Origin: Bacteroidota bacterium
GTDB taxonomy: Bacteria > Bacteroidota > Bacteroidia > 2-12-FULL-35-15
Length of the DNA: 64,000 nt
Direction: 5' to 3'
Assembly (NCBI GenBank): GCA_023251805.1
Contig: JAHEYB010000001.1
Span: 104,384 to 168,383, forward strand
Shown one piece after another: positions 54,839-60,246 of this stretch. Position 1 is the stretch's first letter; every line of letters begins with the position of its first letter. The notes beneath the pieces are model-generated. The model searched no databases. It had not been told where the DNA came from and saw only the letters and a program-made list of their open reading frames with translations. The translations under genes were made by a program, and so were the position numbers.

Positions 54839-55996
54839 CTACCCCAAAGCCTGCTTCAAATCTGCAATCAAATCATCAATATCTTCAATTCCTACACTCA
54901 ATCTTAAAAGCGACTCTACAACCCCAGCTTTATCTCTTTCTTCTTTAGGAATAGAGGCATGTGTCATCGTTGCCGGATGATTGATTAATGATTCCACTCC
55001 TCCTAATGATTCTGCCAATGAAAAGACTTTCATGCTCGAAGCAATTTTAAATGCATCTTCTTGTTTATTCCCTTTCAAAGAAAACGAAATCATTCCACCA
55101 AAATCTTTCATCTGCTTTTTTGCAATGTCGTGATTCTGACTATCAGGGAAACCTGGCCAATATAATTTATCGATCTTAGGATGTGTTTTTAGGAATTCAG
55201 CAATCTTTCGTCCATTCGAACAGTGACGCTCCATACGGATGTGCAATGTTTTTAATCCGCGTAAAACCAAAAAGCTATCCATTGGACCTGGTGTAGCGCC
55301 ACAACTATTATGGATAAATGCCAATTGCGTATATAAACTATCATCACTTAAACAAAGTGCGCCCATAATAACATCACTGTGTCCACCCAAATATTTTGTT
55401 GCGGAATGCATAACAATATCTGCTCCAAGCGCCAATGGATTTTGTAAATACGGAGAAGCAAACGTATTGTCTACTGCACAAATTAATTTATTTTCCTTAG
55501 CAATTTTTGCACAAGCTTCTATGTCGATGATTTGCATCGTAGGATTGGTAGGCGTTTCCAGCCAAATCATTTTTGTATTTGCATTGAGGTGTTTTTTAAT
55601 CACATCCGTATCTTTCATATCAATGAAATGAAATTTGATTCCAAAGGGAGCAAACACTTTGGTAAACATGCGGTAGCTGCCACCATACAAATCATCACCG
55701 GTAATCACTTCATCACCCGGGCGAAGTAATTTCATCACCGCATCAATCGCACCCATTCCACTGGAAAAGCACAAACCATATTTAGCACCTTCTAATTCGG
55801 CCAAACATTTTTCCAAGGCCGTACGCGTTGGATTTTTCCCACGTGCATATGCATAACCTTTGTGCTTACCCGGACTTTCCTGCCAATAAGTTGATGTTTG
55901 GTAAATTGGAGTCATGATGGCTCCTGTAGTTGGATCAGGCTCTTGCCCTGCATGTATCGCTTTGGTTCCAAAGCCTAATTTTGTAGTATCTGACAT
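54839..55996 (-). CDS. PLP-dependent transsulfuration enzyme (cystathionine gamma-synthase/beta-lyase family)
   Basis: 385-aa ORF. ..HSATKYLGGHSD.. is the PLP-lysine motif, and family-typical sequence runs throughout. Confidence 0.9.
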   Translation of the reverse strand: MSDTTKLGFGTKAIHAGQEPDPTTGAIMTPIYQTSTYWQESPGKHKGYAYARGKNPTRTALEKCLAELEGAKYGLCFSSGMGAIDAVMKLLRPGDEVITGDDLYGGSYRMFTKVFAPFGIKFHFIDMKDTDVIKKHLNANTKMIWLETPTNPTMQIIDIEACAKIAKENKLICAVDNTFASPYLQNPLALGADIVMHSATKYLGGHSDVIMGALCLSDDSLYTQLAFIHNSCGATPGPMDSFLVLRGLKTLHIRMERHCSNGRKIAEFLKTHPKIDKLYWPGFPDSQNHDIAKKQMKDFGGMISFSLKGNKQEDAFKIASSMKVFSLAESLGGVESLINHPATMTHASIPKEERDKAGVVESLLRLSVGIEDIDDLIADLKQALG

Positions 55997-56046
55997 AGTA
56001 TTTTAATTGAGTTGTAAAGGTAGTAAATATTTGATTTTACAAATAT

Positions 56047-56379
56047 TTGATTGAACTTTACAATATGTTGATATGCATTTTTTTACCACTGGTCATTAGT
56101 TTTTTGTTTAAGTATTTCGGGTTTAAGCGAATATATGCTACCTATATTATAACCAGTGCAATTGTGATAGGATTGCCAGCCCTAGTGATCCTACTTACGT
56201 ATGTAACAGTTGATAATCCTCTTGTTGCACACTATCACAGCAACAGTTCATTAATAATAAATAGTGGAGGTTCGGTTTTATTATCACTTTTTATAGCCCT
56301 CTTTTTTCAATACATTTTTAATAAAACAATGGGGCTTTCCAAAACCCCAATCACTTGGAAGAAAAAGAAACCTTTTTAA
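56047..56379 (+). CDS. Small membrane protein, unknown function
   Basis: 110-aa ORF with 3 hydrophobic helices. Start uncertain. Confidence 0.4.
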   Translation: MIELYNMLICIFLPLVISFLFKYFGFKRIYATYIITSAIVIGLPALVILLTYVTVDNPLVAHYHSNSSLIINSGGSVLLSLFIALFFQYIFNKTMGLSKTPITWKKKKPF

Positions 56380-56413
56380 CACTTTTTTACATTATTCTCC
56401 GTTTTCATTTTTG

Positions 56414-56421
56414 TATCTTTG
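56414..56421 (+). promoter_or_regulatory. -7 promoter box TATCTTTG
   Basis: Matches TAnnTTTG and ends 8 nt before ATG 56430. Confidence 0.4.
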
Positions 56422-56429
56422 TAATGTAA

Positions 56430-56873
56430 ATGAACCTTTTCAAAAAAATAACAAGTCTCTTTTTAGCTGTAGTATTCTTACTATCAGGCTTTGGTTTTAC
56501 TATTGGCAAAATGGTTTGTTTGAAAAGTGGAAAGACAAAAGTATCACTTTCAATTGCTGAAGATTGTTGCAAAAAAATAAAAAAACAAAATGTTGCTTGT
56601 TGCGATGATGAAGCGCAAATTCAAGAAGAAATTACAATTATCAAAAAAGGAGAATGTTGTGATATCAGTAATACACATCTTCAGCTAAAAGATTTCAATC
56701 CATCTCAAAAAAATGGTGTTCCAGAAGCGAATTGCTTCTCCTTACCTTTTTCAGAAATCACTCTTGTTAACACGTCTTTAAATTCAACACACTCAAAATT
56801 GTTTTTTGCCGATTTGCCACCACATCTTCACGGCAGATCACTACTCAATTTTATTTCCATCCTTACCATTTGA
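56430..56873 (+). CDS. N-terminally anchored Cys-pair protein (HYC_CC_PP-like)
   Basis: 147-aa ORF. TM helix ITSLFLAVVFLLSGFGFTI, then MVC, three CC pairs (EDCCKK, VACCDDE, GECCDIS) and a late ..DLPPH.. From memory, this resembles the small family annotated HYC_CC_PP in Bacteroidota. Confidence 0.55.
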   Translation: MNLFKKITSLFLAVVFLLSGFGFTIGKMVCLKSGKTKVSLSIAEDCCKKIKKQNVACCDDEAQIQEEITIIKKGECCDISNTHLQLKDFNPSQKNGVPEANCFSLPFSEITLVNTSLNSTHSKLFFADLPPHLHGRSLLNFISILTI

Positions 56874-56874
56874 T

Positions 56875-56897
56875 TTCTCGACTTCGCTCGAAATGAC
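56875..56897. repeat. Dispersed repeat copy (reverse orientation)
   Basis: ttctcgacttcgctcgaaatgac, nearly identical to 31176..31197. Lies between the Cys-pair gene and the receptor gene. Confidence 0.7.
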
Positions 56898-56952
56898 AAA
56901 TGTGCGCATTAACATTTGTGTACATCAGTTAAAACAAGAAATCAAAAATCAA

Positions 56953-59172
56953 ATGAATCGATTATTTTATTTAATAATCTTTTTGTCCATTCTAAAGCCA
57001 ATTGCTGCCCAGCATTCAATGGGAAAAGTTTTTGGATTAGATGATAAAGGAAAAAAAGAAGCCTTGCCTGGAGCGAATGTCTACTGGCAAGAAACAACTA
57101 TCGGCACGTCAACAGATGCTGAAGGGGTGTTTTACATTGCCAATGCCGATACACTTCCATCGCATCTAATAATAAGTATGATGGGTTTTTTAAGTGATAC
57201 AGTATTGATATCAAAACCAAATGAAATGGATTTGCAAATCACTTTGAAAAATTCTGTTACACTTAATGCTGTGGAGGTGGCTGAAAAGCAAAACACTACC
57301 ATCAACAAATTATTTACGCCCATTAATACAGAAGTGATTGGAGGAAAAGAATTGTTGAAAGCAGCCTGTTGTAATTTATCGGAAAGTTTTTCTACCAACG
57401 CTTCTGTGGATGTTGCTTTTACAGATGCTGTTTCCGGAGCTAAAAAAATTCAAATGTTGGGATTAGATGGTATTTATACGCAAATCCTTTCTGAAAACAT
57501 GCCCATGCTTCGCGGATTATCTGCTACCTATGGCTTAAATTATATCCCGGGCACTTGGATTGAAAATATTATGGTCACCAAAGGAACAGGCTCTGTAGTG
57601 AATGGCTATGAAAGTATATCCGGACAAATCAATTTAGAATTTTTAAAACCACAGCATCAGAAAAAACGATTTTTTATAAATGTTTACGGAAATGAAAAAG
57701 GAAGAGCAGAAGCAAACATCCACTTGGCAAAAAAATTCAATACAAAATTAACCACTTTATTGTTTACGCATGCTAGCACAAATACACTAAAGCAAGATAT
57801 GAATAAGGATGGGTTTTTGGATATGCCTTTAACACAACAGTATTCTGCCTTTAACAGATGGGATTTTCACAACCAGAAAAATTTTGAAGCGCAATTTGGT
57901 GTAAAAGGATTGTATGAAAGTAGACAAGGCGGACAAACAAATTTTGTGTATTCAAGAGAGCGTGATACTACCAATCATTATGGAATAGGAATAAACACAA
58001 AGGTGATTGAAGCATTTTTGAAAACAGGATTTATGTTTCCTTCCAAGCCATATAAAAGTGTTGGGATTCAATATTCAGGGAAATGGCAACAGCAGGATAT
58101 GTTTTTTGGTTTGAGAGATTATAACGGGGAGCAAAAGAATTTATATGCCAATTTAATTTATGCAAACATTATTGGAACAACCGACCATAAATATAAATTG
58201 GGAGCCAGTTATTTGTATGATAATTACAATGAAAAATTTGTAGACACATCGTTTACAAGAATAGAAAGTGTGCCCGGTGTGTTTGCAGAATATACCTACA
58301 CACATGCCGAAAACTTTTCCTTGGTGGCTGGATTGCGTGCCGACTACCATAATAACTATGGACTGTTTTACACCCCTCGTTTGCACCTGCGTTATAGCCC
58401 AGGCAAAAAAACAACATTACGTTTGTCGGGCGGAAGAGGATTTAGAACAAGCAATATTTTTGTAGAAAACTCATCTATTTTTGCTAGTTCTCGTATAATT
58501 GAAATGAATGAAGAATTGAAACCGGAAATTGCATGGAATTATGGTTTGTCGGCTAACCAGCAATTTAAATTGTTTGGAAATGATGCTTTCATCAACTTAG
58601 ATTTTTTTAGAACTGACTTTGAAAATCAAGTGATAGTGGATTTAGATCAGAGTGTAGATAAAGTGGTGTTTTATAATTTAAACGGGCAATCATATTCGCA
58701 CAGTTTACAAGTTGATTTCGGTTGCGAACCATTGGAAGAGTTTGCTCTCAAATTGGCCTATAAATGGTACGATGTACAAGCTACTTACAATTATGAATTG
58801 ATGGCTAAGCCCTATGTTCCGCAACACAGAGTAATGCTCAACATGGCATACACTACTTACATGGAAAAGTGGAAATTTGATTTTACAACCAATTGGTTTG
58901 GAAAAAGTAGAATTCCAAGTACTGTTTTAAATCCTGTTGAATATCAATTGCCAAAGTATTCAAAAGAATATTTTTTGTTGAATGCACAAATCACCAAAAA
59001 ATTCAGAAAATTTGAAACATATTTGGGTTGTGAAAACATTTTAAATTACACACAAAAAAATCCAATCATAGATGCTGCAAATCCATTTGGAGAGAATTTC
59101 GATGCATCTATGGTGTATGCACCAATTGAAGGAAGAGTTGTTTATATTGGATTAAGAATGGAGATTAAGTAA
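56953..59172 (+). CDS. TonB-dependent receptor
   Basis: The ORF opens at 56806, overlapping the previous gene. ATG 56953 gives the signal peptide MNRLFYLIIFLSILKPIAAQ. Carboxypeptidase-regulatory-like N-terminus, plug (..ESFSTNASVDVAFTDAVSGAKKIQMLGLDG..) and a terminal ..VYIGLRMEIK. Confidence 0.88.
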   Translation: MNRLFYLIIFLSILKPIAAQHSMGKVFGLDDKGKKEALPGANVYWQETTIGTSTDAEGVFYIANADTLPSHLIISMMGFLSDTVLISKPNEMDLQITLKNSVTLNAVEVAEKQNTTINKLFTPINTEVIGGKELLKAACCNLSESFSTNASVDVAFTDAVSGAKKIQMLGLDGIYTQILSENMPMLRGLSATYGLNYIPGTWIENIMVTKGTGSVVNGYESISGQINLEFLKPQHQKKRFFINVYGNEKGRAEANIHLAKKFNTKLTTLLFTHASTNTLKQDMNKDGFLDMPLTQQYSAFNRWDFHNQKNFEAQFGVKGLYESRQGGQTNFVYSRERDTTNHYGIGINTKVIEAFLKTGFMFPSKPYKSVGIQYSGKWQQQDMFFGLRDYNGEQKNLYANLIYANIIGTTDHKYKLGASYLYDNYNEKFVDTSFTRIESVPGVFAEYTYTHAENFSLVAGLRADYHNNYGLFYTPRLHLRYSPGKKTTLRLSGGRGFRTSNIFVENSSIFASSRIIEMNEELKPEIAWNYGLSANQQFKLFGNDAFINLDFFRTDFENQVIVDLDQSVDKVVFYNLNGQSYSHSLQVDFGCEPLEEFALKLAYKWYDVQATYNYELMAKPYVPQHRVMLNMAYTTYMEKWKFDFTTNWFGKSRIPSTVLNPVEYQLPKYSKEYFLLNAQITKKFRKFETYLGCENILNYTQKNPIIDAANPFGENFDASMVYAPIEGRVVYIGLRMEIK

Positions 59173-59219
59173 AACCAAGTCGCAAGACACAAGAACTAAA
59201 AAATTAAAAGACTAAAAAA

Positions 59220-59570
59220 ATGAAAACAAAATTAATTTTAAGCTTGATAGCATTAATATTGATATTTAAAGCAAATGCTCAAGATGCAACAACAGCGGAA
59301 TTAAAAATTAAAACATCTGCAATCTGTAGCATGTGCAAAACTACTATCGAAAAATATATGGCTTTCGAAAAAGGAGTGAAGAAATCAAGTTTGGATGTAG
59401 ACTCAAAAATGTTAACAGTGAGTTATAACCCACAAAAAACTACTCCGGAAAAATTGAGAATAGCAGTTTCTAAAAGTGGTTACGATGCCGATGATGTGAA
59501 AGCCGACCCCAAAGCGTATAAAAAATTGGACGAATGTTGTAAAAAAGGAAAAGTATGTACCGATAAGTAA
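59220..59570 (+). CDS. Secreted heavy-metal-associated (HMA) domain protein with Cys-rich tail
   Basis: 116-aa ORF with a signal peptide. HMA CxxC in IKTSAICSMCKTTIEKYM. The tail is ..LDECCKKGKVCTDK. Confidence 0.85.
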   Translation: MKTKLILSLIALILIFKANAQDATTAELKIKTSAICSMCKTTIEKYMAFEKGVKKSSLDVDSKMLTVSYNPQKTTPEKLRIAVSKSGYDADDVKADPKAYKKLDECCKKGKVCTDK

Positions 59571-59606
59571 GATTTATTTGTATTTTTAATCGTACGAAGG
59601 ATTTTG

Positions 59607-59682
59607 CCAACAACCAACAACCAACAACCAACAACAACAACCAACAACCAACAACCAACAACCAACAACCAACAACCAACAA
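59607..59682. repeat. Heptanucleotide microsatellite (CCAACAA)n, about 11 units
   Basis: Four perfect units (59607..59634), one 6-nt unit caacaa (59635..59640) and six perfect units (59641..59682). It ends 22 nt before ATG 59704. Confidence 0.95.
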
Positions 59683-59703
59683 CTATCAACTAATAACTAG
59701 AAT

Positions 59704-60246
59704 ATGGCATTAATAAAACCGGTTAAAGGCGTTCATCCTAAATTTGGGGACGACTGTTATCTAGCAGAAAATTCAACCATCGTTGGTGATGTAATAATTG
59801 GAAATCAGTGCAGTGTGTGGTTCAATGCGGTGGTTCGCGGAGACGTGAATTCCATACGTATGGGAAATAAAGTAAATGTGCAAGACGGAGCAGTAATTCA
59901 TTGTACTTATCAAAATCTTGCAGCAGGTCAACAAGGAACAAAAACAGTAATTGGCAACAATGTGTCTATTGGCCACAATGCATTAGTACACGGTTGCACC
60001 ATTCATGATAATGTATTGATTGGAATGGGCGCCATTGTAATGGACAATTGTGAAATTGGAAGTAACACCATCATTGCTGCCGGTGCTGTAGTTTTGGAAA
60101 ATACAAAAGTAGAATCAGGAGTTATTTATGCAGGTGTTCCTGCAAAAAAAGTAAAAGACATCAATCAGGAATTAATCAAAGGAGAAATCAATCGTATCGC
60201 AGATAATTATATTATGTACAGTGGTTGGTTTAAGGAAGAAAAATAA
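59704..60246 (+). CDS. Gamma-carbonic-anhydrase-like left-handed beta-helix (hexapeptide repeat) protein
   Basis: 180-aa ORF. ..AENSTIVGDVIIGNQCSVWFNAVVRGDVNSIRMGNKVNVQDGAVIH.. plus the His triad region ..IGHNALVHGC.. Confidence 0.88.
   Translation: MALIKPVKGVHPKFGDDCYLAENSTIVGDVIIGNQCSVWFNAVVRGDVNSIRMGNKVNVQDGAVIHCTYQNLAAGQQGTKTVIGNNVSIGHNALVHGCTIHDNVLIGMGAIVMDNCEIGSNTIIAAGAVVLENTKVESGVIYAGVPAKKVKDINQELIKGEINRIADNYIMYSGWFKEEK

Follow-up and report, generated by a model that had tools for sequence, protein, structure and literature searches.

A DUF8199 leader gene upstream of a TonB-dependent receptor and a secreted HMA protein in Bacteroidota: a possible CutF/CruR-like translational metal sensor

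A 64,000-nt stretch of a Bacteroidota bacterium genome (contig JAHEYB010000001.1, positions 104,384 to 168,383; referred to here as the window) carries a trio of consecutive genes that encode a small cysteine-rich protein of the DUF8199/HYC_CC_PP type (the leader), a TonB-dependent receptor (TBDR) and a secreted HMA-domain metallochaperone. A reading made earlier from the DNA letters (the sequence-only reading) had proposed that all three proteins take part in the capture and handover of a thiophilic metal at the outer membrane. We retain the extracytoplasmic metal module but assign a different role to its first protein. It is about an even bet that the leader is a translational metal sensor resembling CutF and CruR, and that it would gate, within one transcription unit, the passage of metal from the outer membrane to the periplasm through the receptor and the HMA protein.

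The three genes lie on the same strand, as had been described, with gaps of 79 nt (56874-56952) between leader and receptor and 47 nt (59173-59219) between receptor and HMA gene, and are predicted to form a single transcription unit. Gene order is identical in 19 of 19 loci from related genomes (the clade). The trio is surrounded by housekeeping genes (metC, SDR, gamma-carbonic anhydrase and murI) in the window genome and throughout the clade, and no exporter was found near it in the window genome or in any of the 19 clade loci. The association was also tested in reverse, without selection on the leader. When the receptor was searched for in a sample of 401 Bacteroidota genomes, 104 matches of at least 32% identity were obtained (paralogues are at most 30% identical), and 79 of these 104 subfamily receptors have a DUF8199 hidden Markov model (HMM) match directly upstream: 57 adjoin a listed match and 22 were found among 46 fetched loci. 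The families thus co-occur beyond chance and, based on this co-occurrence and the order kept in the clade, the trio can be regarded as a real module, conserved and extracytoplasmic, that serves a thiophilic metal.

A Pfam scan of the leader protein gave no match (including PF11162, at E ≤ 0.1). An HMM search, which had been proposed as a check by the sequence-only reading, gave a match to NF047658 (HYC_CC_PP) below the cut-off of 28 bits (17.7 bits, E = 0.0039; 14.3 bits in the genome search), while precomputed matches to PF26622 (DUF8199) exist for the leader (P0001) and for 41 of 51 homologues. A profile built from the window group and the HYC_CC_PP group together retrieves both groups. Compared with the family pattern (H-Y-C, C-C and P-P in this order behind an N-terminal hydrophobic segment, and F-[LR]-I at the C-terminus), C30, C46, C76-C77, P130-P131 and the terminal Ile of the leader are present and align, and an N-terminal anchor and a hydrophobic C-terminal tail are likewise shared. 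The window leader differs in having Met-Val-Cys for His-Tyr-Cys (H-Y is replaced by M-V throughout the clade), CC for CG in the second motif and an extra CC-containing insert. Based on these comparisons, the leader can be classified as a divergent HYC_CC_PP/DUF8199 protein. The earlier statement that this class is without an assigned function is right for the databases, as the Pfam name DUF8199 indicates, and a literature search returned no paper on 'HYC_CC_PP'.

Every motif previously listed for the 147-aa protein (an N-terminal anchor, three CC pairs, MVC and PP) was located. A basic n-region precedes a hydrophobic segment of 17 residues (residues 7-23); the cysteines are C30 (in M28-V29-C30), the pairs C46-47, C57-58 and C76-77, and C102; and P130-P131 is followed by 16 residues and then the C-terminus. 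Family-wide, only C30, C46, C76 and C77 are invariant and PP is near-invariant (at least 90%); the middle pair, C57-58, falls within a variable insert. The C76-C77 pair, which we propose as the exported metal-sensing thiols, is invariant in alignments of 44 and of 146 family members. The distance from CC to PP is 52-61 residues (53-57 in 110 of 125 members) over a linker of unconserved sequence, and that from the first proline of PP to the C-terminus is 17-18 residues in 91 of 125, with 15-16 residues following PP in most members. The 51 close homologues share the N-terminal hydrophobic segment, K-M-V-C-L-K-S-G-K, two CC pairs, A-D-L-P-P-P and an extreme C-terminal tail, G-R-x-L-L-x-F-I-S-x-L-x-I. 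Identity among close relatives is 37-62% for the leader, compared with 66-83% for the receptor, 61-78% for the HMA protein and 88-98% for MetC. In the AlphaFold2 prediction for the leader (146 sequences; predicted local distance difference test score [pLDDT] 54.9, predicted template modelling score 0.28) only helix 2-21 is confident, and the protein is modelled without a confident fold.

The leader stop codon and the receptor start codon lie on opposite strands of a perfectly paired 10-bp RNA helix (CAUUUGAUUU with AAAUCAAAUG), which encloses an inner hairpin formed by ACAAAUGU and ACAUUUGU. The minimum free energy fold of 56862-56960 is -24.2 kcal/mol (z = -4.17), and 0 of 200 shuffles were as stable. 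The helix is kept in 18-19 of 20 clade loci, the rest of the gap sequence being unalignable. Duplexes formed by the true stop/start pairs of the clade have a median of -11.05 kcal/mol, as opposed to -6.6 for mismatched pairs (p = 9e-6); counted in a fixed register, 73% of cells are paired, compared with 38-47% in slid registers. In four loci (three distinct sequences) the last Ile codon has changed from ATT to ATC together with a change of TCAAATG to TCAGATG, and pairing is kept. No family was found in an Rfam scan of 55900-59800, which gave two chance-level matches only.

A similar pattern is observed across the phylum (because related genomes are not independent, the phylum p-values given here overstate the evidence). 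Over 61 loci the stop/start duplexes have a median of -8.2 kcal/mol; the corresponding medians are -4.65 in other same-strand gaps (p = 2.5e-6) and, with mismatched pairs, -4.6 (p = 3e-10), and energies of -8 or better are reached by 52% of true pairs, 19% of other gaps and 10% of mismatched pairs. The gap after the DUF8199 gene has a median length of approximately 100 nt, versus 37 nt for other same-strand gaps in the same loci, and it folds more stably (median z -3.0 versus -0.7, Mann-Whitney p = 1e-9). In the recurrent helix the 5' strand begins at or just past the leader stop, while the 3' strand ends just before or on the next start. Despite the relatedness of the genomes, the mismatched-pair control shows that stop and start strands fit each other locus by locus.

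The position of the family is equally regular. In an NF047658 scan of the 401 genomes it was found in 115 (approximately 29%) and in 80 of 179 genera (45%). Neighbourhoods of ±7 kb were collected around one match in each of 80 genomes of different genera, with genes taken as naive longest-ORF (open reading frame) calls and Pfam scans made on representatives. In all 80 genomes the DUF8199 gene comes first, on the same strand as the genes downstream. Among the 85 leader genes, 38 head an RND unit, 23 a receptor, 15 other metal proteins (HMA/HMBD/ATPase genes) and nine nothing recognised; several of these nine are artefacts of spurious antisense ORFs, and on correction the receptor count rises from 23 to 26. 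The units are of three types: CusA/CzcA-type RND pumps with OEP and HMBD-carrying HlyD_D23 adaptors; a TonB-dependent receptor plus an HMA protein, in either order; and HMA, HMA-MauE, DUF3347 and AraC genes, often adjoining HMA/HMBD P-type ATPases. For example, locus L131 (7001-14438) reads DUF8199, HMBD, DUF3347, a CusA split in two (429 + 641 aa), OEP and multicopper oxidase. Upstream of its DUF8199 unit, that locus has an HMA-MauE fusion together with two AraC regulators, and a split CusA recurs in many others (L054, L061, L063-L065, L067 and L087). As the family heads RND, receptor and other metal units, its contexts mark it as metal-linked but not uptake-specific.

The slot ahead of the receptor is not always filled by DUF8199. 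In 12 further receptors of the 104, a different anchored Cys-rich small ORF was recognised by eye in this slot, and 7 of the 12 end in W-Q-P-P-x-x-x-stop; 13 of the 104 have nothing recognisable upstream. Approximately 88% of subfamily receptors thus follow a Cys-rich, anchored, PP-bearing small ORF belonging to one of at least two sequence families. The WQPP-ended ORFs (113-138 aa; loci L142, L144, L145, L165, L168, L173 and L175) gave no Pfam or NCBIfam match, and their geometry is like that of the RAPP end of CruR. The occurrence of two unrelated leaders in one slot suggests a role tied to position, that is, regulation. Loci L163, L170 and L174, from high-G+C lineages, have no recognisable leader; they carry a conserved ...ELPFDFAWKYC(N/R)V(T/N)CTA... 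stretch in the receptor strand, just before or fused to the receptor N-terminus, which could be a short Cys ORF or an RNA element.

CutF and CruR are exported leader ORFs of approximately 120-145 aa, with a Cys motif and a PP end, from copper operons that include those of TonB-dependent transporters (PMC9973294, PMC9426467, bioRxiv 10.1101/2025.02.05.636593). CruR has a CXXC-45-RAPP arrangement with the spacing fixed within 1-2 residues (PMC9426467), and CutF has a signal peptide, four Cys and PPP (PMC9973294; bioRxiv 10.1101/2025.02.05.636593). Because the DUF8199 leader matches this anatomy (first gene, fast evolution, no fold, stop-start helix), it is read here as a putative sensor ORF. With 147 aa, it lies under the limit of 150 aa used for leaders of the CutF/CruR kind, and it has the n-region, hydrophobic stretch and N-terminal helix described above, a fixed Cys-to-PP spacing, the first place in a metal-homeostasis unit and RNA structure over the next initiation region. 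No CXXC or CXXXC motif, the other feature of such leaders, is conserved in the DUF8199 family, and the window leader misses by one residue the filter of PMC9973294, which takes PP within 15 residues of the C-terminus.

CruR (Bp2923, DUF2946) heads the operon CruR-bfrG-bp2921 in Bordetella pertussis (Roy et al. 2022, PMC9426467). Like the window leader, in which the export signal is a putative one, it has an N-terminal export signal (in approximately 145 aa), a Cys metal motif and a C-proximal PP at a fixed spacing; it is the first gene, a long gap follows it, and a TonB-dependent transporter is second. Its regulation is post-transcriptional and in cis, and the same is proposed for the window leader. 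The two leaders have no detectable homology, and the window motif is a vicinal CC plus single Cys residues, not CXXC, with PP 16 residues from the end (3 in CruR) and a spacing of approximately 54 residues (45 ± 2 in CruR). Whereas CruR acts via Rho-dependent termination, the window gap folds a stop-start helix over the start codon, and the third gene encodes an HMA chaperone in place of the PepSY protein of Bordetella. In the CutF-cutO-cutG operon of Rhodobacter capsulatus (Ozturk et al. 2023, PMC9973294; bioRxiv 10.1101/2025.02.05.636593), the nascent sensor is exported, carries four cysteines and a proline motif, and is likewise followed by a stem-loop in the mRNA that covers the following gene's initiation region and that the ribosome opens at the leader end. 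The next gene is a multicopper oxidase in R. capsulatus and a TonB-dependent receptor in the window. In addition, the R. capsulatus helix masks the Shine-Dalgarno sequence, while in the window the AUG itself pairs with the last codons and stop of the leader. Shine-Dalgarno sequences are largely absent from Bacteroidota.

A similar operon layout, in which a TonB-dependent receptor is accompanied by a small Cys protein and a small chaperone for copper, is known from Pseudomonas fluorescens, where DUF2946, an OprC-type copper TBDR and a CopZ/Cox17-like chaperone form one operon and are cofit in mutant fitness assays (Price et al., bioRxiv 10.1101/072470). That operon belongs to a different phylum and has an unrelated leader family; the window receptor carries a plug CC instead of the OprC signature, and its chaperone is a secreted HMA protein with an extra CC tail. 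In the survey of Ozturk et al. 2023, Bacteroidota are listed with 'CutF-like' proteins that precede OEP, ACR_tran, HlyD_D23 and TonB-like genes (PMC9973294), and the general idea of CutF-like leaders in this phylum is therefore already published.

The identification of the second gene as a TonB-dependent receptor holds: CarboxypepD_reg (PF13715), Plug (PF07715; 32.9 bits, cut-off 23.9) and the barrel (PF00593; 86.6 bits, cut-off 27) all score above the Pfam cut-offs. The barrel is of the 22-strand type and is modelled by AlphaFold2 with pLDDT 70-88; the N-terminal domain is also modelled well, while the plug (103-228) reaches only 25-45. Within the plug, the pair C139-C140 (motif AACCNLSESF) is invariant in 43 close homologues and in 28 of 28 subfamily members sampled across the phylum, but is absent from three unrelated TBDRs in the same loci. 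Receptors that follow a leader are 35-47% identical to the window receptor across the phylum, compared with approximately 19% for the unrelated TBDRs of the same loci. These alignments set the receptor apart as a member of a subfamily of its own, marked by a vicinal CC that is invariant in the plug. The OprC/NosA-type model TIGR01778 was not among its 11 NCBIfam matches, no CxxxM-HxM motif is present, and a search of PDB sequences returned only remote CirA/PirA barrels. A receptor described in a Bizionia paper was considered as a member of this subfamily and rejected, as it is OprC-like; no paper that connects a Flavobacterium TBDR with HMA and copper turned up in a literature search. An in-frame ATG at 56893 would give a 759-aa form of the receptor (P0148) and would put the inner hairpin and the helix 3' strand inside the coding sequence. 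The start at 56953 is favoured on three grounds: alignments of homologues, conservation of the AAATCAAATG context and the signal peptide.

The third protein proved to be a secreted HMA protein, as had been described, with an HMA match of 33.6 bits (Pfam cut-off 24.8), an A-N-A|Q signal-peptide site, C36-x-x-C39 (59325-59336) and a tail with C106-C107 (59535-59540) and C113. A signal peptide and CxxC are present in all receptor-adjacent HMA proteins, and the C-terminal CC, in the context (P/H)-x-C-C, is conserved in 18 of the 18 that were aligned. Its matches to the NCBIfam models for MerP (33.5 bits, cut-off 92.55) and CopZ (31.9 bits, cut-off 91) are below cut-off. In several species (including loci L140-L145) HMA is fused to the receptor N-terminus, ahead of CarboxypepD_reg. 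N-terminal extensions of TBDRs are periplasmic, and the fusion would therefore place the HMA chaperone at the periplasmic side of the receptor. On sequence grounds, we regard the receptor and the HMA protein as a specific pair. Of the capture and handover chain in the sequence-only reading, the step from receptor to HMA protein is thus upheld by the natural fusions and by the invariant CC in the plug and HMA tail. A place in that chain for the 147-aa protein, as its third link, is unlikely, because the protein's family heads RND efflux units more often than receptors (38 versus 23 of 85) and because the protein is always the first gene, evolves fast, has no confident fold and is tied by a helix to the next gene.

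In the mechanism that we propose, the DUF8199 leader would act in cis as a sensor, and not as a metal carrier. Its N-terminal anchor would bring the nascent chain to the Sec translocon during synthesis, and by the time C30, C46 and C76-C77 arrive in the periplasm, the conserved last 18 residues (PP-x16-stop) would not yet have left the ribosome tunnel. With its AUG locked in the helix with the leader stop, the receptor would be translated only when a ribosome is at, or just off, the leader end. A thiophilic metal, most likely Cu(I), on the exported thiols would alter the dwell time of the ribosome at this point, and dwell would set the amount of receptor and probably of HMA protein too. The receptor, via its plug CC, would then pass metal to or from the periplasmic HMA chaperone (via CxxC and the CC tail) docked at its N-terminal side. 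Two variants can be envisaged. The stop codon may be the site of arrest, in which case the 18-residue tail would act within the exit tunnel and the helix would be held open, such that a stall means on; or the ribosome may pause on PP, 17 codons upstream and too far away to melt the helix, such that fewer ribosomes arrive at the stop and a stall means off. As both are possible, the sequence does not tell which sign the metal response has. The metal is probably copper, since a multicopper oxidase is found next to the family, as are CusA-type pumps, HMBD proteins and CopA-like ATPases, and since the known analogues, including the cofit Pseudomonas DUF2946 operon, are copper systems.

A more specific version of this mechanism is offered tentatively, and we hold it to be possible but doubtful. 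DUF8199 may be a new class of arrest peptide, non-homologous to DUF2946, whose 18-residue tail (PP-x15/16-stop) would hold the ribosome on the stop codon according to the metal state of the thiols. The stop-start helix would hand on the ribosome, or the freed AUG, to the next gene, giving a Shine-Dalgarno-independent coupling across a Bacteroidota copper/silver regulon, and the receptor would move metal by thiol exchange between the plug CC and the CC of the docked HMA protein.

Several observations weigh against the leader as a sensor of this kind. DUF8199 is not detectably homologous to DUF2946: 0 of 146 members match PF11162 (E ≤ 1) and, as the leader has no match either, membership in DUF2946 was rejected. 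A ribosome paused on PP, 16 residues from the end, would miss the helix, and the stall site may be PP or the stop. One leader family heads both exporters and this receptor, a poor fit to one logic if the receptor imports. The window leader has MVC where the family has HYC and, at 56817-56825, L-P-P-H where nearly all close relatives have L-P-P-P; by this alignment, a strong PPP pausing motif is weakened to PP in the window genome only. The low pLDDT of the leader is no proof of disorder, and the conserved spacing could reflect a folded domain. Similarly, the low confidence of the plug model means that the CC pair is not placeable on the extracellular or the periplasmic face. The metal is deduced from neighbours, and vicinal CC pairs are also a hallmark of Hg(II) relays such as MerT and the MerA C-terminus. 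With regard to the helix, fixed-register covariation in the clade (as percentage paired) did not exceed a column-shuffle control (91/500), because the helix columns vary little, and only one pair shows a double change, that of the three sequences mentioned above. With the covariation test failing, support for the helix comes from the slid registers and the locus-specific duplex energies.

The direction of transport is a further point on which more than one reading has to be weighed. The leader and RNA switch could work as proposed and yet serve the opposite end, with excess metal inducing the receptor and HMA protein for periplasmic detoxification, either by sequestration or by TonB-energised expulsion. 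A single logic in which metal means on, as for CutF (PMC9973294), would then fit every context. The leader family does head mostly Cus/Czc-type RND exporters (38 of 85), in other genomes HMA/HMBD P-type ATPases and AraC regulators adjoin the receptor-HMA module, and related units end in a multicopper oxidase. Since related modules frequently have P-type ATPases, RND pumps and a multicopper oxidase as neighbours, the earlier preference for acquisition over detoxification is not established. We nevertheless consider detoxification unlikely and copper import into the periplasm more likely, because TonB-dependent receptors are importers in almost all known cases and because the trio of the clade sits among housekeeping genes with no exporter nearby, a setting that suits constitutive supply. 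The proteobacterial analogues of the receptor, CruR-bfrG and the DUF2946-OprC type, are copper-repressed or serve uptake (PMC9426467).

A role close to the one first given to the leader, that of a stable periplasmic metallochaperone which is anchored in the inner membrane and receives metal from the HMA protein, with the helix only coupling translation for stoichiometry, would account for the four invariant cysteines and the predicted anchor, for conservation throughout the phylum and for the vicinal-CC theme common to all three proteins; CusF-type periplasmic chaperones also accompany efflux pumps. A length of 130-150 aa is long for a leader peptide, but CutF and CruR are equally long and yet regulatory (PMC9973294, PMC9426467). 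A chaperone would not be expected always to come first in its unit and always to be followed by a long structured gap, nor to evolve approximately twice as fast as its partners without a confident fold. The CC-to-PP and PP-to-stop distances are fixed while the intervening sequence is free, unrelated Cys-rich WQPPxxx-ended ORFs fill the same slot before the same receptor, and the trio encodes no inner-membrane transporter to accept the metal. Taken together, these points make the chaperone role distinctly unlikely. It is very improbable that the substrate is another thiophilic species (Hg(II), Ag(I), Cd(II) or As(III)) or a metallophore complex, with the cysteines serving ligand exchange or redox, although the vicinal pairs recall mercury relays, models of the MerT/CopZ fusion-like and MerP kinds are among the best NCBIfam matches of the HMA protein (none reaching its cut-off), chelates rather than bare ions are the usual cargo of TonB-dependent receptors and the receptor lacks the OprC-type signature. 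No merA, ars or metallophore-synthesis genes were found nearby in the window or in the 19 clade loci, the neighbours elsewhere are of copper/silver type, as listed above, and for a mercury system the module is too widespread and its placement too housekeeping. We therefore retain copper as the probable metal and the leader as its candidate sensor.

The coordinates of the features discussed are collected in Table 1. A Bacteroidota-type -7 promoter box, TATCTTTG, called on the -7 consensus of the phylum, ends 8 nt 5' of the leader ATG, and a TAnnTT(T/C)G box is found at equal distance in most of the 19 clade loci. Because this position is kept in the clade, the leader possibly heads the transcript, with a predicted 5' untranslated region of a few bases and a near-leaderless mRNA whose predicted first base falls at approximately 56425-56429. 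The start coordinate given in the sequence-only reading, 56414, is the first base of this box and not a gene start. Between metC and the leader there is a very hydrophobic ORF of 110 aa (56047-56379) that may not be a gene; it was rejected as a member of the module, since only 2 of the 19 related loci show it, with weak conservation (32-36%), and in the others metC runs right up to the leader promoter. Between the HMA stop and the gamma-carbonic-anhydrase gene, a tandem CCAACAA-type repeat (59590-59703) gives, when read on the minus strand, ORFs with repeated VVGCWLL.

Table 1. Features of the leader-receptor-HMA locus (positions in the window)
Feature	Position	Strand	Basis
Leader ORF, DUF8199/HYC_CC_PP protein, 147 aa	56430..56873	+	ORF list, profile matches, alignments
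TonB-dependent receptor gene, 739 aa	56953..59172	+	Pfam domains, homologue alignment
Secreted HMA metallochaperone gene, 116 aa	59220..59570	+	Pfam HMA match, motif alignment
Bacteroidota-type -7 promoter box, TATCTTTG	56414..56421	+	Sequence; conserved position in clade
Codons of invariant vicinal pair C76-C77, proposed exported metal-sensing thiols	56655..56660	+	
Codons of P130-P131, candidate ribosome-pausing motif, 16 residues before C-terminus	56817..56822	+	
5' strand of stop-start helix, CAUUUGAUUU, contains leader stop UGA (56871-56873)	56867..56876	+	
Inner hairpin, ACAAAUGU-(8 nt)-ACAUUUGU, intergenic	56896..56919	+	Sequence and fold
3' strand of stop-start helix, AAAUCAAAUG, contains receptor start AUG (56953-56955)	56946..56955	+	
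Codons of plug pair C139-C140, motif AACCNLSESF	57367..57372	+	

Metal regulation in Bacteroidota is poorly understood. We know of no description of a stop-start helix that pairs the AUG itself, of a PP-x16-stop tail, of a CC-plug receptor subfamily with a CC-tailed HMA partner or of a WQPP-ended leader type, and of no characterised system for copper passage across the Bacteroidota outer membrane. If the proposed mechanism is true, post-transcriptional switching by metal in this phylum would depend mainly on DUF8199, which is present in approximately 29% of sampled genomes and in 45% of genera, and its targets would be efflux pumps as well as a receptor and chaperone pair that is uncharacterised. 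The use of a nascent chain, once exported, for sensing, so far represented by two proteobacterial cases, would then have arisen, or diverged beyond recognition, in a second phylum with another RNA read-out. The CC-plug receptors and CC-tailed HMA proteins are a defined, testable candidate for copper passage across the outer membrane, and DUF8199, the TBDR subfamily and the adjacent HMA proteins could be labelled in genome annotations as one metal module.

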